Shown piece after piece: positions 3,045 through 58,963 of a stretch of 64,000 nucleotides of DNA (within the stretch, counting starts at the first letter, position 1; the number at the start of each line of letters is the position of its first letter). The translations under genes and the position numbers were made by a program. Under the pieces are notes generated by a model. That model ran no database searches. It saw only the letters and a list, made by a program, of their open reading frames with translations, and was not told the DNA's origin. Source of the stretch: Candidatus Nomurabacteria bacterium (lineage in GTDB: Bacteria > Patescibacteriota > Minisyncoccia > Phycocordibacterales > UBA918); NCBI GenBank assembly GCA_023898585.1, contig CP060229.1:726587-790586 (forward strand), read 5' to 3'.

Positions 3045-3725
3045 ATGAAAAATCCTTGGGTAATCATTTGTCTCATAACCATAATCTTGTTTGGGGGTGC
3101 CTTTTGGTACTCAAAAGTTGTCGATAATAAAAACAACGAAGGTGTGGAGATTGTTCAAAACATCAAAGGTAATGTCGAAGCAAGGGTTCGTCTGGTTGAG
3201 TACAGTGATTTCCAGTGCCCCTCATGCGCCAGTTTCCAGCCGATCATGGACCAGATTTTTGAGGAGTTCAGTAATGATGTGAATCTCGAATACAAACATT
3301 TTCCGCTCTATATTCATCAATACGCAAGACAAGCTTCCGTAGCGGCGGAGGCGGCCGGTCAACAAGGTAAGTTTTTTGAATTTCACGATATGTTGTTTGA
3401 GAGACAAGTCGAATGGTCTTCCGCAAGGACTCCTGACACTCTCTTTGTACAGTACGCCAGTGAATTGGAGTTAGACATACCCAAATTTAAACGTCACATG
3501 AAATCATCCGTATTGAGAGACAAAGTCAACACTGAATTTGAAGAGGGTAGACAGGCGGGAGTAACTGGCACGCCAACCCTTTTCCTTAATGGTGAAATTA
3601 TGAAGTACGATTCATACCAATCACTTATTGAACAAGTCGCGTTCGCGGTCAATCCAGAATCCAAAGCGACATCCGGCAGTGAAGAAACTAAGACTGGAGT
3701 ATCAGATGTAAAATTCGGATTATAG
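3045..3725 (+). CDS. DsbA-family thiol:disulfide oxidoreductase, membrane anchored
   Basis: N-terminal TM helix followed by a thioredoxin fold with CPSC active site (FQCPSCASF). Confidence 0.8.
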   Translation: MKNPWVIICLITIILFGGAFWYSKVVDNKNNEGVEIVQNIKGNVEARVRLVEYSDFQCPSCASFQPIMDQIFEEFSNDVNLEYKHFPLYIHQYARQASVAAEAAGQQGKFFEFHDMLFERQVEWSSARTPDTLFVQYASELELDIPKFKRHMKSSVLRDKVNTEFEEGRQAGVTGTPTLFLNGEIMKYDSYQSLIEQVAFAVNPESKATSGSEETKTGVSDVKFGL

Positions 3726-3801: not shown

Positions 3802-5073
3802 ATGAAATCAAAGCAAGTTTTCGATGAAAATCTTTTCCAAGCGCTTTGCAAAATAAGCCCCTATATTGACGAAGCGGAATGGTTGAAAGATCATATTAGA
3901 ATTCGTCACGAGGAGAGAGAAAAATTTTTAAACAACGAAATCGAAAACCCCCACTTTACTTATAGTCCCCAAAAGTCCAAAGTTGATTATTTGAAATTGA
4001 TCGAAGAGTTCAATCAGTGTTTAAAAGACTCCGATGTGCCGGCGGTGGTAGTAGATCTGTACCAAAGGAAACTCGAAAAGCAACTACATCGAAATGCACT
4101 GATCGAAGCTTCGCTTGCTGGCGATGACCACGTTTTCTTTGAAAGGAGTTCTGATATTTACGGTCGACCACAGAAAAAGTATTTTTCTTATGTTGCTAAA
4201 CGGTTACTTACCTTGTGTAACGAACAAAAAAGTAAATACCCGGTTATTTCCCGCCGTTTGCGTAAAGTTGTGTCAAAAATCAACCAAAACGGCATTGATA
4301 TTGACGTCAGCATGTTACCGCCTTTAGTGACAAATGGTAGGCTGATTCGATCGGTGGATGAGGTTAGGAGTATATTTATAGAAACGTTGAGTCGGTGTGG
4401 TATTGAGGGTTGGATTGTCAGTGTCGATAAGGCAGGAACCAGAGGACGTTTCTCGGTTAGTCCGCAAAGTAAGACAATTCACATACCTTGTGAGTCAGAA
4501 TTGTTGTCTAGACCTCAGTCTCTTACCGATCATGGTGTCCAAGCGTTGGCTGAACACGAAGTCGGAGTTCACGTCAGACGTTCGTATGAGGCTTCAAAAG
4601 GACCTCTAAGGTTGCTCGAAATTGGTCTTGATAATTATCTTCCCGGTGAAGAGGGGTTGGCCAGTTATGCGCAACAACAGGTTGAAGGAGCCGATGAATT
4701 CTATGGGTTTGACAGGTATCTGGCGGCCAGCTTGGCGGTCGGTATGGATGGCGAGGTGAGAGATTTCCGTTCCGTTTTCAGTTTAATGTCAGATTATTAC
4801 ACTTTGAAATTCGCGCTCGAAGATAAGACAGTCTCAATTCCTTTTCAGGCAGCGTGGGATATTTGTGTGCGCATTTTCAGGGGAACTACCGGGCAAACCC
4901 CAGGTTGTATTTTTACGAAGGATATCGTGTACATGAAAGGTAATATCGGCATATGGAATTTGCTTTCCGAAAGACCAAAAGTCTTTGAGTCGCTATTTAT
5001 TGGCAAATATAACCCTTTACTTTCCCGACATGTAAAGACTTTACAAACGCTTGATATTCTGGAAGAGTGGTAG
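3802..5073 (+). CDS. DUF1704 / flavohemoglobin-expression-modulating QEGLA-motif protein (MATCAP-like HExxH metallopeptidase fold)
   Basis: HEVGVH (HExxH) motif, and a PGEEGLASYAQQ block that corresponds to the family's QEGLA signature. Its 3' end overlaps the next gene by 7 bp. Confidence 0.7.
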   Translation: MKSKQVFDENLFQALCKISPYIDEAEWLKDHIRIRHEEREKFLNNEIENPHFTYSPQKSKVDYLKLIEEFNQCLKDSDVPAVVVDLYQRKLEKQLHRNALIEASLAGDDHVFFERSSDIYGRPQKKYFSYVAKRLLTLCNEQKSKYPVISRRLRKVVSKINQNGIDIDVSMLPPLVTNGRLIRSVDEVRSIFIETLSRCGIEGWIVSVDKAGTRGRFSVSPQSKTIHIPCESELLSRPQSLTDHGVQALAEHEVGVHVRRSYEASKGPLRLLEIGLDNYLPGEEGLASYAQQQVEGADEFYGFDRYLAASLAVGMDGEVRDFRSVFSLMSDYYTLKFALEDKTVSIPFQAAWDICVRIFRGTTGQTPGCIFTKDIVYMKGNIGIWNLLSERPKVFESLFIGKYNPLLSRHVKTLQTLDILEEW

Positions 5074-6038
5074 TCATGAAAATAATATCTTCAAAATTAT
5101 TTGCACCCGCGCTGTTTTGTTGCCTTTTGTTTTTACCGTTTATATCTTTTGCTCAATCAGAAACTGAAACATTTGGCTTTAGAGATGATCTAACCGAAGT
5201 CAAAGAAAGTACCTCTACCGCAACATCGACCATAATCGAAGAGGGTACAGCATCCGCGACCGCTGCAAATATCATTGGTCAACAGGCGATTTCTTCCAAA
5301 GGCAACGACTTGACTCGTCCCGAGGAGTTACCTGAAAAGGTGGCTATCATTACGTTGTTTGAAGATCGTCCTGTTAATGAACTGAGCTTTATCAACGCTA
5401 TGGCTTTTTGGGTTCAAGAATCAGTTCGTGACGGTATTCCGGCCAACACGATTTTCCTCATCCTCTTGACACCTTTTTTGGCCTTATTCGTGAGTTTTGT
5501 TAGGGTGGTGGTCGGTTTACCAACACTTGATATGCTGGTCCCGATCGCTTTATCTTTCGCTTTGGTTGCCGTCGGTGTGACGGTTGGTCTATTGGTCTTG
5601 GGGGCGATTTTGGTTGCTTCATATATATCCAAGAAGATACTGTCCCACTTGCGTATCATGTTTTACCCTAAGCGTTCTCTTTCCATAGTGTTGCTTGCCA
5701 TTTCAGTTTTTGCCGCTTTGTCAATCGGTGTTGCTTTTGAATTTGAAAAAATTCTCAGCGTGTCGATTTTCCCAATCTTGGTTTTGTTGTTGTTGGGTGA
5801 CATGATTGTTTCCGTTCAATTACACAAAAGCCCAACAGAGACTTTGATGATTACTGGTACGACAATATTTATCGGTTTGATAGGCTACATGGTGGCGACC
5901 AGTGACGCTATCCAAAACACCATAATCCTTTACCCAGAACTAGTGTTACTTGTCATCCCGGCTAATCTCTTGATTGGTAGGTACTTTGGATTGCGCGTAT
6001 TTGAGGTGTTTAGGTTTAGTAAAGTCAGTAAAGGTTAA
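5067..6038 (+). CDS. 7-TM membrane protein (third component of the ATP-grasp/QEGLA cluster)
   Basis: Signal peptide, a ~100-aa Thr/Ser-rich ectodomain, then 7 predicted TM helices. Its position between the DUF1704 and ATP-grasp genes matches the known conserved trio. Confidence 0.55.
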   Translation: MVVMKIISSKLFAPALFCCLLFLPFISFAQSETETFGFRDDLTEVKESTSTATSTIIEEGTASATAANIIGQQAISSKGNDLTRPEELPEKVAIITLFEDRPVNELSFINAMAFWVQESVRDGIPANTIFLILLTPFLALFVSFVRVVVGLPTLDMLVPIALSFALVAVGVTVGLLVLGAILVASYISKKILSHLRIMFYPKRSLSIVLLAISVFAALSIGVAFEFEKILSVSIFPILVLLLLGDMIVSVQLHKSPTETLMITGTTIFIGLIGYMVATSDAIQNTIILYPELVLLVIPANLLIGRYFGLRVFEVFRFSKVSKG

Positions 6039-36672: not shown

Positions 36673-39600
36673 TTAAATCTCGTTCATTTTTGCTCTGGTT
36701 TGTGGACCAAAACTACCATAACCCGTACTTCCCGTTGTTCCAAAACAAATAATATTGTAGTAACATTGAAACCGCCTAAGTGCTTCAGTTGTTTTCGACC
36801 CATAGAATGTTGTTTCAAAACCGTAGGAGCCAGGACCGGTGGGGGAGACATGAAAGCCCAGTGCATTGAGCTTCTTTTGTAGCATTAGAACGTCGTTGTT
36901 GTCATCACCGATTTCCAGTTTTTTTGTGAATACGTATCCAGTGGTCGCGTGCGTTCTTTCTGTTAGTTGAACTCTTAGCACAGTTATCAATTTCTTGAGT
37001 TCATCGATCTTTAACAATAACGTTTCTCTGGTCTTCTCTTTGTCCAAGTCCTTAGTTTCTTGAGTTGAGCTAGCGACATTTTCAGTCTCAGTGTTTTCTT
37101 TTTTACTGCGACTGGAACTTCCGCCCCCACCCCCACCACTTCCACCACCTCCACTGTCCGGAGCGGGAGGCACTATCACCTCAGAACGTTCGACTGAAAA
37201 CACGTGGGTTGACCAACTACCCGTATAAGTAAAGGATAGAGTGCCTCCACTATCGGTTGAGCAGGTGCTTGAATCACAGTTTGATCCTGATATCTCTGAT
37301 GAATCAGAACCGTCAATTTTTATATCGTAGTCTGTATCTGTTGCTAATCCGGATATGGTAAACACTGTCGAAGTTGCGTAACTGGAAGTAGCGGTCCAGC
37401 TTTTGATTGCGTCTTCAGAATCAGGTTCCCAGGTGTTGATCGAAATGTCCATGTATTCGGCATAATCATTGACCCCGAATCCTCCTATTGGCGAGACGGA
37501 AAGAGTGGCGGTCTCTGAACTCGAAGTCGCAGTAGTATGTCGATATTTTCCGTCTGCGTAAATTCTTATTTCACTGGTGACGTTGATGTTATCGCTACCA
37601 ATAGTAAATGGTGGTTGATACTCGTAGGCGCCGATGTCGGGGGTGCCATAAATCGGGTTCCCTAATATGTCTGAAGTGAGTGAAACGTCAATACCCGTAT
37701 CGATATTGGGAGAAAAGCTTTGGAGACTAAAATCACTATTTATCAAATCAACAAACAATGGGGAAGTGGAAGCTTGATTGTCTGTGCCCTGAAAAGTATT
37801 TATCCAATGACTATCAACCGTTCCGTTTGACCAGTTGTTGTTAGATGCAACAAAATTAGTTAAAGCACCACCTATATTGAATTCAATATTTTTGGTGTTG
37901 TCTATCAGGATGTTGTTTCGTACCGATGTGTCATTCGTTCCGTTATTTACATTGATCCCGATACCATTGTCGCGTATTACATTGTTGTATAATTGTGCAT
38001 TTTTGAGACTAGCCATGTAAACACCATTGGTTGAGCTGTTTTCGATGGTCGAGTATCTAAGAATTGAGTCTGTGTTGGTAGATGGACTTGAATTATAAAA
38101 GTAAACTCCGGTAGCGCCATTATCTGCAACCTCTAACCCTTCACCGATACACCGGTCAGCAATAAGTACCCCTATCTGGTTGGTGTATTTGACTACCAAA
38201 TCTTTAAAAGTATTACCTGACAAGCAGAACAAACCATAGTTTTCTTTACCTGCCTCAATATGTAAAGTGTTTATGTCTTCACCAGTATCTAATCTATAGT
38301 AGACTGTTACGCCTGTACTGTACCACTCACCTTCGTTCAATGAATTCTGACTGGTACTGTTCCTAACTTTTTTTTCAAGTGAATTGATGGACGGGCCGGT
38401 CGCCAAAACACCTGCACTGATGATTGATTTTTGGTAAGTGTTAGGGTTTCCTCCTCCGTACGCTGTCCAACCACCGACACTTGGATGCGATACGTCTTGA
38501 GACCCCAATATATCAGGTTTGTTTTGAGCGTCAATGCCTCGGAATGTGATGTTTGGGTCACCCAAAGCAACTGGGGTTGGGGATATATCTTCTCGGTATG
38601 GCACTCCATCGTTTTTAACAATGATCACCGTGTTGCCGGGTTGGGCTACAGATACTGCCTTGGCAATCGTGCCCCAAGGTGAAGATTCACTCCCGTCATT
38701 TAAGTCATTTCCTAGAACATTATCTACATACCAAATTTGTGATTCGGTGTAACCGGAATTTACCTGAATCGTGCGGGTTGATTGCGAGGATGATGTAGCA
38801 CCATTACCATTTACCGCCACTATATACCAGGTGTGTGATCCGTCAGAAAGAGGAGTCACAATCGTGGTTGTGGTGCCGGTTATATTGTCTGTATGAAGTG
38901 ATCCGTCTATGTACAGTTGGTATTTTGATATGCCGAAATAACTACTCGGCTCGCTCCAAGTGAAAGTGGGCAGGTCGGAGGTAACGCTGTTATTGGTTGG
39001 AGTCAAGATGTTAAAATAACTGTGAAACTCAATTTGGTTTTGGCTCAAAGGACCTAAAACGCTATAAGTATCGATACGTGAGAAGTCAGCAGTGTTATCG
39101 TTTGCGTCATCCGCTGTGAACCAGGCAAAATATTTGTCAGAAAACGCTGTAATAATTGGGGCTAAAGTACTGGTTGCTGTCAAATCAGAGTACTCCATTA
39201 TTTTTGTCCCGCCATGGGTTGTTATAACATCATTGAGTGAAAGTTCACCTGGTTGAAAGCCCGGATTGCTGTCAAACTGAAAAAGCACTTCTTTCACACG
39301 ACGAGTTTGTTTGTACGGGTAAAGGGTAAAAGTATTTTGACCAAAAGCATTGGTTGTCGTTCTGGCAACTGGAGGTTGTAACTTAATCTCGCCGTCTGTT
39401 AAGGCTGTAGAGGAAGCATAAGAAACCACGCCAAACCCATAGGTCGCACTATTATAGCCAGTGTTCCAATTTGAAGCTGTTTGTCTTAAGGAAGCTTTTA
39501 CATCAAGCCAGTTCCAGCTTGGATGATTGTACTTAATTACAGCCATCAACCCTGCGTTTCTGGCAGTGAGTTCAGAAAGTGATGTGCCACCAAAAGTTAT

Positions 39601-40113
39601 TTCCGGGCCATCCGGTATTGTCCACTCTATTCCGGGACTGCTACCCCAGCCGGCGTTTCCGGGAGCGGTGTGAAAAATAGGAGGTGGGCTGTTGGTACTC
39701 ACGGTAAAAGCATAGTTGTAAGTCATGTCGTAGCTGACATATTGGTTGTAGATGGTTACATTGTCCCCTGTATACCCTGTGTAGGAAGTAGTGTTAATAC
39801 CGTATGGGGCAGAAGAAGATACCATCGCTCCGGTATGGTCGTAGTATGTCGCGTTTGGATTTATAGCTGCTGCCGGTCCGCCCGAAAAAGTGTCTCCTGA
39901 CATGCTGGTACTATCGACAATAATGTCGGTTCCCACATGTCCGGCGCCGAGTAATTGATCTATGGTGTTGGTAATGTCGCCGTAAGCGTGTCGCGAGTTA
40001 GACAGCACTTTAACTTGAGCTTCAACTTGGTTATCTCCGTAAACCAAAAAGCCTAAAATTACAATTACGAAAGAAAACTTGACCGTCCGGTGAGGGTTCA
40101 GAAATAAAGACAT
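36673..40113 (-). CDS. large secreted cell-surface protein: parallel beta-helix (pectate-lyase-like) repeats, FN3/Ig-like domains, Gly-rich linker, coiled coil, C-terminal peptidoglycan-binding (PG_binding_1-like) domain
   Basis: ATG at 40113 gives a signal peptide MSLFLNPHRTVKFSFVIVILGFLVYG. Repeats such as NNVIRDNGIGINVNNGTNDTSVRNNILIDN, a GGGGSGGGGGGSS linker, and a C-terminal LMLQKKLNALGFHVSPTGPGSYGFETTFYGSKTTEALRRFQ block. The track's ORF starts 171 nt upstream at 40284. Confidence 0.8.
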   Translation of the reverse strand: MSLFLNPHRTVKFSFVIVILGFLVYGDNQVEAQVKVLSNSRHAYGDITNTIDQLLGAGHVGTDIIVDSTSMSGDTFSGGPAAAINPNATYYDHTGAMVSSSAPYGINTTSYTGYTGDNVTIYNQYVSYDMTYNYAFTVSTNSPPPIFHTAPGNAGWGSSPGIEWTIPDGPEITFGGTSLSELTARNAGLMAVIKYNHPSWNWLDVKASLRQTASNWNTGYNSATYGFGVVSYASSTALTDGEIKLQPPVARTTTNAFGQNTFTLYPYKQTRRVKEVLFQFDSNPGFQPGELSLNDVITTHGGTKIMEYSDLTATSTLAPIITAFSDKYFAWFTADDANDNTADFSRIDTYSVLGPLSQNQIEFHSYFNILTPTNNSVTSDLPTFTWSEPSSYFGISKYQLYIDGSLHTDNITGTTTTIVTPLSDGSHTWYIVAVNGNGATSSSQSTRTIQVNSGYTESQIWYVDNVLGNDLNDGSESSPWGTIAKAVSVAQPGNTVIIVKNDGVPYREDISPTPVALGDPNITFRGIDAQNKPDILGSQDVSHPSVGGWTAYGGGNPNTYQKSIISAGVLATGPSINSLEKKVRNSTSQNSLNEGEWYSTGVTVYYRLDTGEDINTLHIEAGKENYGLFCLSGNTFKDLVVKYTNQIGVLIADRCIGEGLEVADNGATGVYFYNSSPSTNTDSILRYSTIENSSTNGVYMASLKNAQLYNNVIRDNGIGINVNNGTNDTSVRNNILIDNTKNIEFNIGGALTNFVASNNNWSNGTVDSHWINTFQGTDNQASTSPLFVDLINSDFSLQSFSPNIDTGIDVSLTSDILGNPIYGTPDIGAYEYQPPFTIGSDNINVTSEIRIYADGKYRHTTATSSSETATLSVSPIGGFGVNDYAEYMDISINTWEPDSEDAIKSWTATSSYATSTVFTISGLATDTDYDIKIDGSDSSEISGSNCDSSTCSTDSGGTLSFTYTGSWSTHVFSVERSEVIVPPAPDSGGGGSGGGGGGSSSRSKKENTETENVASSTQETKDLDKEKTRETLLLKIDELKKLITVLRVQLTERTHATTGYVFTKKLEIGDDNNDVLMLQKKLNALGFHVSPTGPGSYGFETTFYGSKTTEALRRFQCYYNIICFGTTGSTGYGSFGPQTRAKMNEI

Positions 40114-40320
40114 GAAATCGGTTGTTACCTGTAAAATATTAGCGAAATTGTACCATATTTGAAGATGTGTAAAAAAGTAACGATGTTTATTAAACAACAT
40201 TTCTTTAATTATGAATTCGAGATGACTTTTCGAATGGTGTGTTTCTGTTGCATACCGATTTTGTAGTGTAAAAGAGCCGGTCACATCCTGTACCGGCCCT
40301 GTTTATAAAAATCTCTCAAA

Positions 40321-41129: not shown

Positions 41130-41205
41130 TGGTGGACTCGACAGGACTTGAACCCGCTACCTCCTCAGTGCAAATGAGGCGCTCTACCAGCTGAGCTACG
41201 AGCCC
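41130..41205 (-). tRNA. tRNA-Ala (anticodon UGC), CCA encoded
   Basis: Reverse complement GGGCTCGTAGCTCAGCTGGTAGAGCGCCTCATTTGCACTGAGGAGGTAGCGGGTTCAAGTCCTGTCGAGTCCACCA. G3:U70 Ala identity pair. The track ORF 41059-41241 (AQLVER...GSSPV) is a translated-tRNA artefact. Confidence 0.9.
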
Positions 41206-44189: not shown

Positions 44190-44273
44190 ATATTCTTAAA
44201 GAAAGACGTATCTAGCGCGTAACCCATAATAAATATGGGGCGCGCTATTATTTTATGCAGTATAATTTCATTT

Positions 44274-45095
44274 ATGAAAATTGGATTTTTTGATTCGGGT
44301 TTAGGGGGTCTCACTATACTTAAATCCGTGGCGCGTGAACTATCCGAATATGAATATGTGTACTATGGTGACACAGCCAATCTTCCTTATGGTGATAAAA
44401 CTGAGGAAGAAATTTACCGTCTCACAGTAGAGGGAGTGAGGTATTTGTATAGAAACGATTGTGTTCTTGTGATTATTGCTTGCAATACAGCTTCGGCGGA
44501 GACGGTGAGGAGACTGCAGGTCGAATTGTTGCCGACGGAATATCCCGATAGAAAACTGCTTGGCGTGATTGTGCCCACCATAGAATTGCTCGAATTCAGT
44601 CAACCGACCAAGGTGGCATTGTTGGCTACTAAAAGAACTATTGAATCAAAGAAGTATCCGAGAGAACTTGATTCTAAAGGCAACGGTAACGTAATTCTGA
44701 TCGAAGTTTCGACTCCGGAGCTGGTTCCGCTTATTGAGGCGGGGAATAATGATGAGGCAACGAGACGGGCGATATCAAGAATAGAAGCGGAAGCAGGGGA
44801 TAGCGAGGTTGTGGTTCTTGGTTGTACTCACTACACACAAATCAGTTACTCACTAAGAGAGTACTTCAGGGAGACAAAAGTGATCATAGCGCAAGACGAA
44901 GTAATTCCGAAAAAATTGGAAAGTTATCTTTTTAATCATCCTGAGATTACCAGCAGGCTAACACGCGGGGAAGAGAGAAAGATATATCTAACCAAACACA
45001 GACCGGACTACGACCGATTGATAGGGCAATTCCTCGGGGGAGTTTATCTGGATAAAGAGACGGAAATAGGAAGAGATCTAAACAGCTTGATGTAG
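44274..45095 (+). CDS. murI: glutamate racemase
   Basis: MKIGFFDSGLGGLTIL, IACNTAS and GCTHY catalytic Cys blocks. ATG at 44274. Confidence 0.9.
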   Translation: MKIGFFDSGLGGLTILKSVARELSEYEYVYYGDTANLPYGDKTEEEIYRLTVEGVRYLYRNDCVLVIIACNTASAETVRRLQVELLPTEYPDRKLLGVIVPTIELLEFSQPTKVALLATKRTIESKKYPRELDSKGNGNVILIEVSTPELVPLIEAGNNDEATRRAISRIEAEAGDSEVVVLGCTHYTQISYSLREYFRETKVIIAQDEVIPKKLESYLFNHPEITSRLTRGEERKIYLTKHRPDYDRLIGQFLGGVYLDKETEIGRDLNSLM

Positions 45096-45597
45096 ACCAC
45101 TCCATATGTCGCACAATATATCTTTTGCGACATTAAAATTAAATAACAAAGACATGGTTGTATTTGGCACTCTTACCTTTAGATTAGCTTAAAGTTGCAT
45201 TTCTAAGTGCTAAATGACCCGTAGTGAGTGCTTCGGTCTCTTTATACTCAAGCCAGGTTCAAATTCTTGGTCTTTTATTCTGTGCTTAATTCTAAAATTT
45301 TATTCCACGCTACCGGCGACGTTATTATTTATACTGTGTTTAGTGTCGCAAAATTTGTTTTATTTGCGATTCATTGACTGTGACCCCACGATCATACCTA
45401 CGCCTTTACGTAGGATGGCATGGCAATCAAAAATATTGTCCCATCCAGTTTAAGTTTAATATCCCCTATTCAGATCAAATTCCCTTTCAAAATATTGTGC
45501 GACATTCGATCCTGTCATTATTCATAAGACCTGGTCAGGAGTAGGTAGTAAGCAGATTAGTCATCAAAGAAGCTATCGCAACAGCGGGTTTGTTATT

Positions 45598-46962
45598 TTA
45601 CCTTGCTGGTAAGTAGAGCATTGGATCGAGATAGGCGTCTGTAGCAGCAACCGGTGTGGAGGCTGGTCCACAACTGGTGACAGTTTTTATTTCATTAAAC
45701 TTACGAACGGTAACTCCCTTCTTGGCGTAAACGGTGAAGTGTAAGTGAGGGCCGGTAGAGTATCCTGTGTTCCCCACGTACCCTATCACTTGACCAGTAG
45801 TGACTTTTTGTCCTGCTGTCACAGCGATACTGCTCTGGTGAGCATACAATGTGGAAAGTCCGTTAGCGTGGTCAATCAGTGTCCACATACCCCATGAATA
45901 ACATCCGGGCACAGCATCAGTATTCCCTGTTGCACGCACTACACCGGTGAGTGGAGCCATGATAGCGGTGCCTCGTGGAGCACCCATGTCGATACCTGGG
46001 TGATATGCTCGACCGCCGTAAACAGAAGAATTTCTGGCTGCGAATTCGGTTCCGCCGAATAGTTGTGTAATTATGACGTTAGCAAGTGGCCACTCAAAAA
46101 CTGCCGTACCCGGGGCTGGAATGGTATTTGGATCAAGTATGAATTGAAGCTTTGATTCAAAGTCTCTCATTTCTCTTTCTATCTGGTCTCTGGCTTCTTC
46201 CTTGCTGGCTAGAAGTTGTTGATAGTTCCTCTCTTCGTTTTTTGTGACCGCCAGCAATTCAGCTTGCTCGTTTCGGTTATTTTCCAGGACTTGGTTTTGG
46301 CTAGAGTATTGATTCTTCAGAGAGCTTAATCTGTTTCTTTTGCTTTCATTTTCTTCCCTTTTTTCCACCAAAATAGAGCGAAATGTGTCCAGTTCAGATA
46401 CTTTGCCCGCCATGGTATCGCGAACATTTTCACGAGCTTCAAAAGTGCTCCAAAATTCTGAAAGCTTATCGTGACGCAATAATATTTCTATAAGACTATC
46501 TTCCTCAGCTCGATACTCCGCTCGGATGATAGAACCGATCGCTGCCTCCGTCCCCTCAATATCTTTTTCGGTTTTGGATATTTCAAGAATCAATTTGTTG
46601 ATTTCTAGATCGGTTGAGGTTATCAAATTCTCTGTTTTTGATATTTCCGAGTTGACTTTTTTTCTTTCAAGTTCAAGCTGGTTTATTGCGGACTGTAGAG
46701 TTTTTTTCTCCGCTCCTACTTTTTTAAGCTCGGCTTCAAACTGTGCAATTTCTGCTTCTATTTCTGCCAGACGATTGCTTCGAGTGTCGATCTCATTACG
46801 TAATTTATCAATTTCCGATTCCGCTGAAACTTCTGACGGCGTGATTAAAATGAACTGTGAACAAGCAAACAATACCAAGAAAACAATCAGCAGATTTTTA
46901 CACTTATTCAATGTGAGTGCTGAAGTCTTGGTTTTGAAGAAATTTTTAATAAGATCCGGCAT
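45598..46962 (-). CDS. M23-family peptidoglycan metalloendopeptidase with N-terminal coiled coil (EnvC/LytM-like)
   Basis: HPGIDMGAP (HxxxD) and HLHFTV (HxH). Long coiled-coil N-terminal half. Confidence 0.85.
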   Translation of the reverse strand: MPDLIKNFFKTKTSALTLNKCKNLLIVFLVLFACSQFILITPSEVSAESEIDKLRNEIDTRSNRLAEIEAEIAQFEAELKKVGAEKKTLQSAINQLELERKKVNSEISKTENLITSTDLEINKLILEISKTEKDIEGTEAAIGSIIRAEYRAEEDSLIEILLRHDKLSEFWSTFEARENVRDTMAGKVSELDTFRSILVEKREENESKRNRLSSLKNQYSSQNQVLENNRNEQAELLAVTKNEERNYQQLLASKEEARDQIEREMRDFESKLQFILDPNTIPAPGTAVFEWPLANVIITQLFGGTEFAARNSSVYGGRAYHPGIDMGAPRGTAIMAPLTGVVRATGNTDAVPGCYSWGMWTLIDHANGLSTLYAHQSSIAVTAGQKVTTGQVIGYVGNTGYSTGPHLHFTVYAKKGVTVRKFNEIKTVTSCGPASTPVAATDAYLDPMLYLPAR

Positions 46963-54792: not shown

Positions 54793-56217
54793 TTAATATT
54801 CCTCGACGAACTTTATTAACAGCCGTACCGGCTCCCCGGTTGCTCCCTTGGCTAACTTGTCATGAGGGATGCTGGACATACGTGGTGCTATATCAATATG
54901 TGCCCAAGGTTTTTTCTTTGGAGCAAAAAATGACAAAAATATCCCCCCTTCGATACATCCGGCATAGCGGGAAAAATTAACATCAATATTGCTGATGTCA
55001 GCCCTGTGACTTTTGAGCATAGTTTTGTACTCACACCAAAGCGGTAGTGGCCACGCCAAGTCACCAGTATCTTCACCGAGTGCTACGAGTTTTTCTTGTA
55101 GCTCAACATCTTTTGTTAGCACGGCCGAAGCATGCTGACCGAGGGCCACAATTGACGCTCCGGTTAACGTAGCGATATCGAGTATGACTCTTGGCGAATA
55201 GTATTTTTCGGCGTATGTCATAGCGTCAGCCAAGACCATCCTTCCTTCAGCGTCAGTATGGAGTATTTCAACAGTCTTTCCTGACATGCTGGTCGCAATA
55301 TCACCTGCTCTCATGCTGTCGCCTGAAATTGAATTCTCTGCAGTCGCTATCACCGCTATGACATTTTTTTTAACACCCAGTTTTGCGATTGCCCGCATGG
55401 CGCCAATCACGGACGCTCCGCCAGACATATCAAGGTGCATATCATGCATGAACCCGCTCGGTTTGACATTAAGACCCCCACTGTCATAAGTGATACCTTT
55501 TCCTATGAGCGCGATCGGTGCTTCCTCTTTGCCCTTTTTTGTCTTGCCTCTTCCCCAATATTCCAAGACAATCAAACGGGGCTTGTCGGTAGCTCCTTTC
55601 CCGACAGCTTCCAAAAGACCCATTTTTTCTTTTTTAATACCTGTGAAATCAAGAATTTTTACAGTTACTCCGGTTCCTTTCATTACGTCCTTGGCTGTTT
55701 TTGCCAACAAGCTTGGTGTCATGTGTTCCCCGGTTGTGTTGGCTATGTCGCGGGTGGTGTTGATGGTGTCTCCGACGGTGAGTCCGGTCGAAAAGCTTCG
55801 CTTTTCGACCGGACTCACGATTCCGCAAACCAAAATTTCCCTCAATTCTTTCTCGATTCTTTTCTCAGTTTTATATTTCCTGAACTCATATTGAGCCAGT
55901 TGCAGGTTTTCTGCTAGGGTTCGAAAAAACCACGTATCGCCTTTTTCTTCAATTTCAGGACTACCCATAGGACCAACTTGAATAGCGATGTATTCAAGTT
56001 GGTGCGCTTTGGCTGATTGAACAATTGTCCGCACCAAAGTTCGGAAGCTTCTTGGAGTGGCTTTTTTTCTTTTCCCCGCTCCCATACGGTATTCGAGATG
56101 ACCATCATCAGCTTCGACTAATCTGTGCCAACTCGGTTTGTCTTCTGTTAAGATAACCCGGCAATACTTTTTCGGAGTGTCAGATAAGGATTTATTGGTT
56201 GGTGTTATTTTAGTCAT
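54793..56217 (-). CDS. pepA: leucyl aminopeptidase (M17)
   Basis: NTDAEGRMVLADA signature and ~470 aa length. Confidence 0.9.
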   Translation of the reverse strand: MTKITPTNKSLSDTPKKYCRVILTEDKPSWHRLVEADDGHLEYRMGAGKRKKATPRSFRTLVRTIVQSAKAHQLEYIAIQVGPMGSPEIEEKGDTWFFRTLAENLQLAQYEFRKYKTEKRIEKELREILVCGIVSPVEKRSFSTGLTVGDTINTTRDIANTTGEHMTPSLLAKTAKDVMKGTGVTVKILDFTGIKKEKMGLLEAVGKGATDKPRLIVLEYWGRGKTKKGKEEAPIALIGKGITYDSGGLNVKPSGFMHDMHLDMSGGASVIGAMRAIAKLGVKKNVIAVIATAENSISGDSMRAGDIATSMSGKTVEILHTDAEGRMVLADAMTYAEKYYSPRVILDIATLTGASIVALGQHASAVLTKDVELQEKLVALGEDTGDLAWPLPLWCEYKTMLKSHRADISNIDVNFSRYAGCIEGGIFLSFFAPKKKPWAHIDIAPRMSSIPHDKLAKGATGEPVRLLIKFVEEY

Positions 56218-57918: not shown

Positions 57919-58963
57919 CCGAACACTTATTCTGCTAACTCGTCAGTCCCACTGGAGTGGTTTTTTTGATTCTAGCACACGTATGTTTTTTGAGTTCCCT
58001 AACCCATGTCTCTTTTGGTGTACGAAATCCAAGACACTTCATAAAGCGGGTACGCAGGTGCTGTTCTGCTTGCAAAATAACCTCTGGCGGTATCTGTGAA
58101 ATATCACACCCTTTTGGTACAAACTCACGTATACGGCCATTTCGGTTCTCGACCGTACCTTTCTCGGCTGAGTTGTACGGGTGTGTGAGGTACACCACCG
58201 CTTCAACCAGAGCTGATAGTTCCTCGTGCTTCTGAAAGGACAGGTCGTTATCGAGAGTAATGCTTCTGACCGGTATACCACCAAGACATCCGGCAATGAG
58301 GTCATTTACGGTGAGTGTCGTCCTGTTTTTAGTATAAATGATAAAGGGATATCGCGTCTTGCGCTCTACGAGTACCAGGAGTGATCCGTATCCAGCTTTG
58401 CCACTCTCAATGAAATCACCTTCAAAATGACCGAATTCTAGTCGTTCATTGGCTTTTCTTGATCGCTTTTCAATACTAACCTTGGTGGTGTCACCAGCTG
58501 CTTTTGTTCCTCTCTTTGGTCCGCCTTTGCGCTTTACCCGTTTGCGATACAGATGGTGTTCAAGTGGGCCGCCATGACTAGAGCCTATGAAGTGGTAGAT
58601 CGCCTTGGTACTTGCGTATTGTATGTGGGTATCTATTTCCCGCATCCTGCCTGATATACCTTCAGGTGACTGATCGTCTTCCAGTGCTTTAGTGACATAC
58701 TCTTTCAATATTGGATTCATTGCCACTTTAAGACACTTTTGTTTCGCTTGTTTCCTGCGTCGGTCTGCTTTTTTCTGTGCCCTGTCCGCCCGGTAGATTC
58801 CTCTCACACTACCGAGTCTGATCTCTTCACTTATCGTGCTTGGACTGCGATCTAATGCTCGTGCTATCCACCGCACGCCTTGTTTCTTTTTGAGATAGCG
58901 CGCAATACTTCTTCGCTCACAATACTCTAAATGATTCATCATTGTTCATCTTAGAGTGTTCGG
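57919..58963 (-). mobile_element. IS30-family insertion sequence (boundaries tentative)
   Basis: Contains an IS30-type transposase. Only a 9-bp inverted match (ccgaacact at 57919-57927, agtgttcgg at 58955-58963) lies at the expected ~1.05-kb spacing. Confidence 0.35.
57935..58942 (-). CDS. IS30-family DDE transposase
   Basis: N-terminal HTH (RRSIARYLKKKQGVRWIARALDRSPSTISEEI). DDE triad contexts GHFEGD, LDND, and YNSAEKGTVENRNGRIR. Confidence 0.85.
   Translation of the reverse strand: MMNHLEYCERRSIARYLKKKQGVRWIARALDRSPSTISEEIRLGSVRGIYRADRAQKKADRRRKQAKQKCLKVAMNPILKEYVTKALEDDQSPEGISGRMREIDTHIQYASTKAIYHFIGSSHGGPLEHHLYRKRVKRKGGPKRGTKAAGDTTKVSIEKRSRKANERLEFGHFEGDFIESGKAGYGSLLVLVERKTRYPFIIYTKNRTTLTVNDLIAGCLGGIPVRSITLDNDLSFQKHEELSALVEAVVYLTHPYNSAEKGTVENRNGRIREFVPKGCDISQIPPEVILQAEQHLRTRFMKCLGFRTPKETWVRELKKHTCARIKKTTPVGLTS

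Follow-up and report, generated by a model that had tools for sequence, protein, structure and literature searches.

A probable replication terminus in a small patescibacterial chromosome, with a dif-type site, a spare arm in inverted orientation and remnants of a lost gene

Known Xer systems and the present locus

In Escherichia coli, as in the majority of bacteria, the XerCD recombinases are served by dif, a site of two 11-bp arms and a 6-bp centre (PMC5357621), and this 28-bp 11-6-11 element lies in the terminus between converging replichores and is conserved while its flanks vary (PMC5357621, PMC2731167). The dif site is a well-known kind of element, and full-text searches found, among the papers they covered, no description of Xer/dif in Patescibacteria. 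Here we describe a 64,000-nt stretch of a Candidatus Nomurabacteria genome (contig CP060229.1, positions 726,587 to 790,586; the whole stretch is called the window, and positions are counted from its first letter), in which the gap between the convergent genes murI (glutamate racemase) and an M23 peptidase holds a dif-type 28-mer and, further along and inverted, a copy of one of its arms, which we call the spare arm or site A. This gap is probably the replication terminus of a small, Paceibacteria-like Patescibacteria chromosome, consisting of a dif site, the inverted spare arm and, between the two, what is left of a vanished gene.

The site in the window shares with XerCD/dif its length, its layout, its position between converging replichores and its conservation amid variable flanks. 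It differs in that its arms are almost symmetric, which argues for one recombinase over a XerC/XerD pair, and in its constant GATATA centre, whereas the centre of the proteobacterial site varies between species (PMC2731167). A symmetric site and the expectation of one recombinase are shared with the single-recombinase systems, namely XerS/difSL of streptococci and lactococci, XerH/difH of Helicobacter and Campylobacter, and XerA/dif of archaea. As with XerS and XerH, moreover, a xer gene is found ~20–90 bp from its own site as a linked module, in a clade that is sister to that of the window (PMC1914069, PMC3325230, PMC2958812). However, difSL has 31 bp and an 11-bp centre instead of the 28 bp and 6-bp centre seen here, the recombinase of the sister clade scores best against XerC/XerD models, and in the window's own clade the xer gene does not adjoin the site.

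Dif sites are also used by mobile elements. Integrative mobile elements exploiting Xer (IMEX), among them CTXphi, VGJphi and TLCphi of Vibrio and XacF1 of Xanthomonas, have small genomes with Zot and Rep genes and without an integrase, are bounded by a full site and a copy made of one arm plus the centre, and in some cases stand in tandem (PMC5357621, PMC5666396). Elements with these features occur at the site in other contigs of 30–32% GC, not in the window, whose spare arm, unlike an IMEX boundary, is inverted and carries half a centre. The pdif and dif modules of Acinetobacter plasmids and chromosomes are likewise short segments between inverted Xer-type sites (PMC12907356, PMC11705084), but in our locus one of the two boundaries amounts to half a site, what lies inside is a stretch of a gene or its residue and no complete cassette, and no sign of mobility was seen. 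A parallel of another kind is offered by the XerD-binding sites in the terminus of Bacillus subtilis, which, as cited in PMC12322038, unload SMC complexes. Being a one-arm dif copy in a terminus, the spare arm is predicted from its sequence to be comparable to these sites; unlike them, it is a single such site, 372 nt from dif, and it is absent in some lineages. Karaboja and colleagues reportedly described, in Mol Cell in 2021, extra one-arm dif-like sites in the B. subtilis terminus that have a role other than dimer resolution.

The dif-type site and its use in other contigs

The 28-mer at 45106–45133 (ATGTCGCACAATATATCTTTTGCGACAT) is dif-like in its layout, its terminus position, its conservation and its likeness to established dif sites. 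It is self-complementary at 24/28 positions, compared with 16/28 for E. coli dif, and because its arms are thus almost perfect inverted copies of each other, a single recombinase is suggested. The centre is asymmetric at its outer bases, while the inner ATAT is itself palindromic. In register, the 28-mer agrees with E. coli dif (sequence confirmed in NC_000913.3, 1590750–1590777) at 17/28 positions, chiefly in the inner arms and the centre, a resemblance that is moderate since 17 or more matches are expected by chance ~13 times per 64 kb when both strands are counted. The dif site of B. subtilis presumably agrees with it equally well, likewise at 17/28. Only one full copy of the 28-mer is present in the 64-kb window, where the runners-up score 18–19/28.

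An initial annotation of this DNA, made from the letters, had pointed to an exact 14-nt inverted repeat, to a local palindrome of two 8-nt halves and, as one of several explanations, to a pair of recombination sites. The inverted repeat is real, with arms 372 nt apart, but its left arm lies at 45106–45119 and not at 45116–45129. Similarly, the palindrome is present, but at 45106–45133 instead of 45116–45143, and it extends nearly perfectly over 28 bp (24/28) rather than over 8 + 8 nt. The suggested pair comes close to our reading, in which a dif-type Xer site stands on the left and a copy of one of its arms on the right. The inverted repeat is not a product of chance: the 10-nt arm core TGTCGCAMAA has four exact copies in the 64 kb, every one of them within 45107–45504, and both elements are conserved base for base across many species.

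Several signals place the site where two replichores meet. Within the window, cumulative GC skew reaches its maximum at 44–46 kb, or at 45.0–45.2 kb when resolved to 200 nt. The orientation of the genes switches at the site, with the open reading frames (ORFs) of at least 100 aa mostly on the + strand before it and the large ORFs all on the − strand after it. For head-on genes of the left side the skew on the + strand is −0.011, compared with +0.148 for co-oriented genes, and a replication-linked skew component of ~+0.07 is left after the coding-strand effect. Across related loci, the skew falls at the site in 18/20. The k-mers most skewed toward the putative dif in the window are GGGGAAG (13:0), GGGGAG (18:1) and GGGGAA (24:3); within head-on genes, GGGGAR (4:1) and TGGGGA (5:0) also point toward dif, and GAAGAA follows the coding strand (5:9). 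GGGGAR polarity may reflect a KOPS-like, that is FtsK-orienting, motif, on small numbers. A purine tract just past site A in relatives contains words of the GGGGAR type.

Conservation was assessed in relatives retrieved via the M23 protein, which yielded 23 loci, one per species, with 59–79% protein identity (loci and contigs are designated by L numbers). All 23 are Patescibacteria, labelled Paceibacteria, Nomurabacteria, Kaiserbacteria and similar; one additional retrieved locus, L029, is an unrelated Flavobacteriaceae contig. The DNA of the gap matches the related loci in two places only, the 28-mer and the right-hand 14-mer (site A), both of which stay the same, or almost so, in ~20 species; their edges are sharp and their flanks cannot be aligned. 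The 28-mer taken alone is identical or near-identical in ~25 species whose neighbouring M23 protein has 59–79% identity, and the bases between its outer 8-nt repeats are as conserved as the repeats themselves. A scan of IMG/VR with the 24-nt core returned 21 further contigs of 30–47% GC, with unrelated flanks and without the window's neighbour genes. Across these very divergent genomes the centre GATATA is kept.

The use of the site by mobile elements is seen in six of the IMG/VR contigs (L041, L043, L046 and L048–L050; 30–32% GC), in which elements of 5.1–5.9 kb are integrated at the dif core. Their genes encode a Zot-like assembly ATPase (phrog_197), a rolling-circle Rep (PF23343, phrog_3419) and a DUF2726 protein, and no recombinase. 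One end of such a prophage is the full site; the other, in direct orientation, is an unrelated arm followed by exactly GATATA+TTGTGCGAC. At least two types of element use the dif core among these contigs, L046 carries two different elements in tandem, and in L041 the prophage sits between converging host genes. By analogy, these integrase-less elements show the pattern of filamentous phages whose integration relies on the Xer system of the host, as described previously (PMC5357621, PMC5666396). The junctions provide indirect evidence, drawn from other contigs and not from this genome, that the site would support site-specific recombination. In L031, a 40-kb contig classed as viral, a tyrosine recombinase gene (3823–4755) lies ~460 bp from the dif core (3338–3361).

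A second line of evidence comes from the sister clade (L008, L012, L018, L028, L062 and L063), in which a tyrosine recombinase of Xer architecture occupies the slot between M23 and murI. This protein has a SAM-like N-terminal domain and a catalytic domain, and its best NCBIfam matches are XerC/XerD (~1e-65, full length, below the equivalog cut-offs). The family is highly conserved, with at least 74% identity among the best 120 of 7044 matches, and several sources name its members XerC or XerD. The gene lies ~20–90 bp downstream of a variant site (ACTTCGTTTTACATATATTGTGCGAAG) that keeps the centre and the inner arm; the outer bases are changed on both arms in such a way that the dyad symmetry is preserved. 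In L062 and L063 the xer–dif module has the opposite orientation relative to M23 and murI. L012 also contains a half site at 5568–5585 (ATATTGTGCGAAT), in direct orientation ~470 bp upstream of the variant and 13/14 identical to L012's own dif variant.

In the mechanism that we favour, the 28-mer would be the dif site of the chromosome. Its two 11-bp arms would be occupied by two subunits of an Xer-family tyrosine recombinase, which would swap strands over the 6-bp centre and in this way resolve a dimeric chromosome into two monomers when the cell divides. The likeliest enzyme would be a single recombinase acting as a homodimer.

A near-invariant 28-mer at the terminus could serve as a landmark for closing and checking metagenome-assembled genomes, and matching of attachment sites could assign filamentous phages and other Xer-exploiting elements to hosts carrying the site. 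It could also offer genetic tools a natural docking site that requires no integrase, in a group that is hard to manipulate.

The spare arm and the gene around it

The right-hand 14-mer, at 45492–45505, matches the far half of the full site at 14/14 positions and the near half at 12/14. Nineteen other loci carry an exact, sharp-edged copy of site A, which is visibly decayed in L062. In relatives it encodes the peptide ECRTIF inside a gene of the glucosamine-6-phosphate isomerase/6-phosphogluconolactonase family, and its codons, GAA-TGT/CGT-CGC-ACA-ATA, show no synonymous change in eight intact genes. For comparison, 45/50 other columns with an invariant residue use 2–6 codons, and the other invariant arginines use 4–6. 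The block is also exact where the surrounding gene has decayed beyond recognition, being kept in at least 10 dead-gene lineages. Because synonymous change is absent and the block survives in dead-gene lineages, selection appears to act on site A at the level of DNA. Among the dead-gene lineages, site A is kept in ~11/15 of those with the window's dif type and in 0/3 of those with the variant dif, a link that is only suggestive given a Fisher test of ~0.04 computed by hand.

As a copy of one dif arm that lies in the terminus region and seems to be under selection, site A has the sequence attributes of an accessory half-site. We give a slightly less than even chance to the prediction, the likeliest of those considered, that it is an accessory binding site for an Xer subunit. 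The spare arm would not be a partner for productive recombination, and an Xer subunit would still bind it in this accessory capacity. More tentatively, a single-recombinase Xer/dif system of Patescibacteria possibly has in the spare arm a functional partner under selection, that is, an accessory Xer-binding site that overlaps coding sequence and is co-maintained with one type of dif; its job could then be SMC unloading, the setting of synapse topology or rare inversion. We know of no half-site of this kind described next to dif in Patescibacteria. A conserved spare arm poses the question of whether, in very small genomes, half sites beside dif serve some purpose of their own. Site A was also considered as a phage junction and rejected, since phage junctions are direct repeats with the whole centre and site A is inverted with half a centre.

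The DNA between the two elements would be the leftover of the 6-phosphogluconolactonase-family gene that relatives still carry. The 28-mer and site A are 374 nt apart in the window compared with 531–683 nt in relatives, where the interval is filled by a PF01182 gene of 230–280 aa in L006, L007, L009, L010 and L016, and also in L008, L018 and L028. Both the window and at least nine further lineages have lost the gene or keep it only as fragments. A search for its remnant in the window spacer by tblastn and profile hidden Markov model, with shuffled controls, scored nothing but the peptide of site A (4.3 bits, where the best shuffle reached 2.4), and the status of a decayed gene therefore rests on synteny, as nothing past that peptide is recognisable. 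Decay of this gene would be the reason why the gap is unusually long. The initial annotation had called the gap atypically long; at 502 bp (45096–45597) it is indeed the longest inter-ORF gap in the window (ORFs of at least 100 aa), but gaps of 300–450 bp also occur.

Several observations were made at and beyond the edges of site A in relatives. In L014 (6077–6610) the C-terminal 172 residues of the enzyme are intact (275 bits) and all sequence upstream of site A has been replaced; in L011 (2824–3137) an adjoining ORF has its stop codon directly next to site A; and in L063 an annotated NUDIX gene stands at the equivalent position. The breakpoints of rearrangements fall at the edge of site A. 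Some 320 nt after site A (+321–344 of the L006 spacer) comes another conserved block, CTTAAAATCGATTCTAGAGCCTCG, which encodes LKIDSRAS in intact genes. Equivalents are present in L007, L009–L011, L014, L016, L017, L019, L020, L025 and L062, and absent from the window, L015 and L021; dead-gene lineages retain the block at 20–23 of its 24 bases.

Alternative explanations and opposing observations

One alternative is that the spare arm is functionless and only looks conserved, having been left behind in the terminus as a scar by phage integration or by a rearrangement through Xer long ago. Further partial dif-like pieces in the gap of the window (45343–45370 and 45430–45439) and in L011, L020, L025, L026 and L012 would agree with this, as would the complete absence of the arm from some lineages and the breakpoints that abut it in L011 and L014. 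However, a neutral remnant would be expected to decay like the unalignable spacer around it, and the sharp-edged block is exact in 19 loci and free of synonymous change in all eight genes; phage scars, moreover, are direct repeats with the whole centre, whereas the spare arm is inverted and has 3–4 of the 6 central bases. We therefore consider a scar unlikely. It is improbable that the full site and the inverted arm form an Xer-driven invertible segment, flipping ~400–600 bp and switching the enzyme gene of the relatives off and on. The geometry fits such a switch, with inverted sites that share an arm and part of a centre around a palindromic inner ATAT, and the xer–dif module is found in both orientations relative to its neighbours (L062, L063). 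Yet the arrangement is the same in all of the ~30 loci that have both elements, a metagenome scan for the inversion junction gave nine contigs that all had the ordinary arrangement with a chance GA flank, the would-be partner site lacks a second arm, and the block persists where no gene is left to switch.

The remaining readings give the palindrome or the gap as a whole no part in Xer recombination. A transcription-factor operator or a bidirectional terminator would be at home between convergent genes, in a palindrome (the usual form of operators) that begins 10 nt past the murI stop codon. This is very improbable for a sequence that is not followed by a T-run, that is equally conserved inside its outer 8-nt repeats, that recurs between quite different genes in contigs of 30–47% GC and at both ends of integrated phage-like elements, and that is tightly linked to a xer gene in the sister clade. 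Less probable again, and rejected here, is a structured non-coding RNA of the kind that the initial annotation had suggested, or a transcript whose ends would pair through the 14-mers, perhaps with sites for regulators on either side. Long-range pairing over 14 bp is possible on one transcript, a terminator-like hairpin lies inside the gap at 45252–45271, and the T/G variants at positions 2/27 in L011, L014 and L015 would form wobble pairs on one strand. But the scan of the gap against Rfam that had been proposed gave, at a permissive threshold, a single JUMPstart match at chance level (E=0.96), ARAGORN found no transfer RNA (tRNA) or transfer-messenger RNA gene in the gap (only a tRNA-Ala at 41130–41205), folding of the spacer on the two strands was no better than that of shuffles (z −0.92 and +0.10), the interior is not conserved, changes of site A in L016 and L025 are uncompensated in the partner 14-mer, and the palindrome recurs at prophage junctions in unrelated contexts. 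The least probable reading, likewise rejected, is another suggestion of the initial annotation, a miniature inverted-repeat transposable element with 14-bp terminal inverted repeats. It has in its favour a perfect 14-bp inverted repeat around ~400 bp of AT-rich non-coding DNA. Against it, neither the 14-mer nor the whole gap has further copies in the 64-kb window, the flanks (CTCCAT| and |TCGATC) show no target-site duplication, the ends stay at the orthologous position in many species while the interior is wholly different, and one of the supposed ends is half of a 28-bp palindrome that is found alone in many other genomes.

Our preferred reading, a terminus with a dif site, a spare arm and gene remains, has observations weighing against it as well. 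The GC skew is partly confounded with gene orientation, and the uniqueness of the site was checked over 64 kb only. No Xer or FtsK gene lies within the 64-kb window, and a crude motif search of the window for tyrosine recombinases found none. The spare arm is absent from L022–L024 and L026 and is therefore dispensable. Finally, L008, L018 and L028 keep ATGTCG in the spare arm although the outer arms of their local dif differ, which weakens a simple reading of the same protein requiring the same sequence.

The coordinates of the features are collected in Table 1. The spacer shows no similarity to the spacers of relatives and is unalignable between species, and a promoter and terminator scan gave counts near the shuffled expectation. 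Two smaller features that had been noted before were found inside the gap: the CCTACG/CGTAGG hairpin, at 45397–45414, and the 79-aa ORF. The latter was rejected as a gene, as it has a 5-nt and a 1-nt indel and at least 15 substitutions in the strains L001 and L002, which are 99.6% identical to the window over ~8–11 kb. The degenerate 28-mer in the spacer is only a tentative pseudo-dif, because scores of 17–18/28 are at chance level in the window; at 45430–45439 the AAAATATTGT edge of site A recurs as a decayed second copy, and both of these pieces are already mutated in L001 and L002. Outside the divergence hotspot, the window and L001 differ at two positions in the 4.1 kb before it and at none in the 3.9 kb after it, which points to a local recombination patch or a mutation hotspot beside the terminus site.

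Table 1. Features of the gap, its flanking genes and the variant site of the sister clade (window positions unless a locus is named)
Feature	Position	Strand	Remarks
murI (glutamate racemase)	44235–45095	+	ORF call and Pfam Asp_Glu_race PF01177; last gene of the left replichore
dif-type Xer recombination site	45106–45133		11-6-11 layout, 24/28 self-complementary, terminus position, conservation, prophage junctions
dif, first arm	45106–45116		ATGTCGCACAA
dif, centre	45117–45122		TATATC
dif, second arm	45123–45133		TTTTGCGACAT
Non-coding spacer	45134–45490		358 nt, compared with 515–667 nt in relatives, where the C-terminal two thirds of a 6-phosphogluconolactonase-family gene sits
79-aa ORF	45214–45453	+	Not a gene; indels in near-identical strains
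Terminator-like hairpin, then T-run	45252–45281	+	Consensus scan only; 157 nt past the murI stop; in the strain-invariant part
Divergence hotspot	45314–45510		22/45 differences in the 10.8-kb alignment with L001 (99.6% identical); site A untouched
Degenerate dif-like 28-mer GTGTCGCAAAATTTGTTTTATTTGCGAT	45343–45370	+	Exact 10-nt arm TGTCGCAAAA; 18/28 to dif; possible relic
Site A (spare arm)	45491–45506		Extra dif arm at 45495–45505 TTGTGCGACAT plus 3 nt of centre; inverted; minus-strand block AATGTCGCACAATATT
M23 peptidase	45598–46962	−	ORF call and PF01551; last gene of the right replichore
Variant dif	L008 8493–8520; L012 6031–6058; L018; L028; L062 ~5897–5924; L063 ~5958–5985		Outer arms CTTCG/CGAAG or ATTCG/CGAAT

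A few observations concern the wider neighbourhood. A shorter start of MurI, sought by exact look-up, is not on record. In E. coli, PepA assists Xer recombination at plasmid sites as an accessory factor; a PepA-like M17 aminopeptidase is encoded at 54793–56217, only 9 kb away from the dif-type site, and the proximity is probably a coincidence. An IS30-like transposase (HTH_38 and rve domains) lies at 57935–58942, 12 kb from the site. On the other side, the gene at 36673–40284, head-on to replication near the terminus, specifies a protein of 1203 aa that has beta-helix and peptidoglycan-binding domains.

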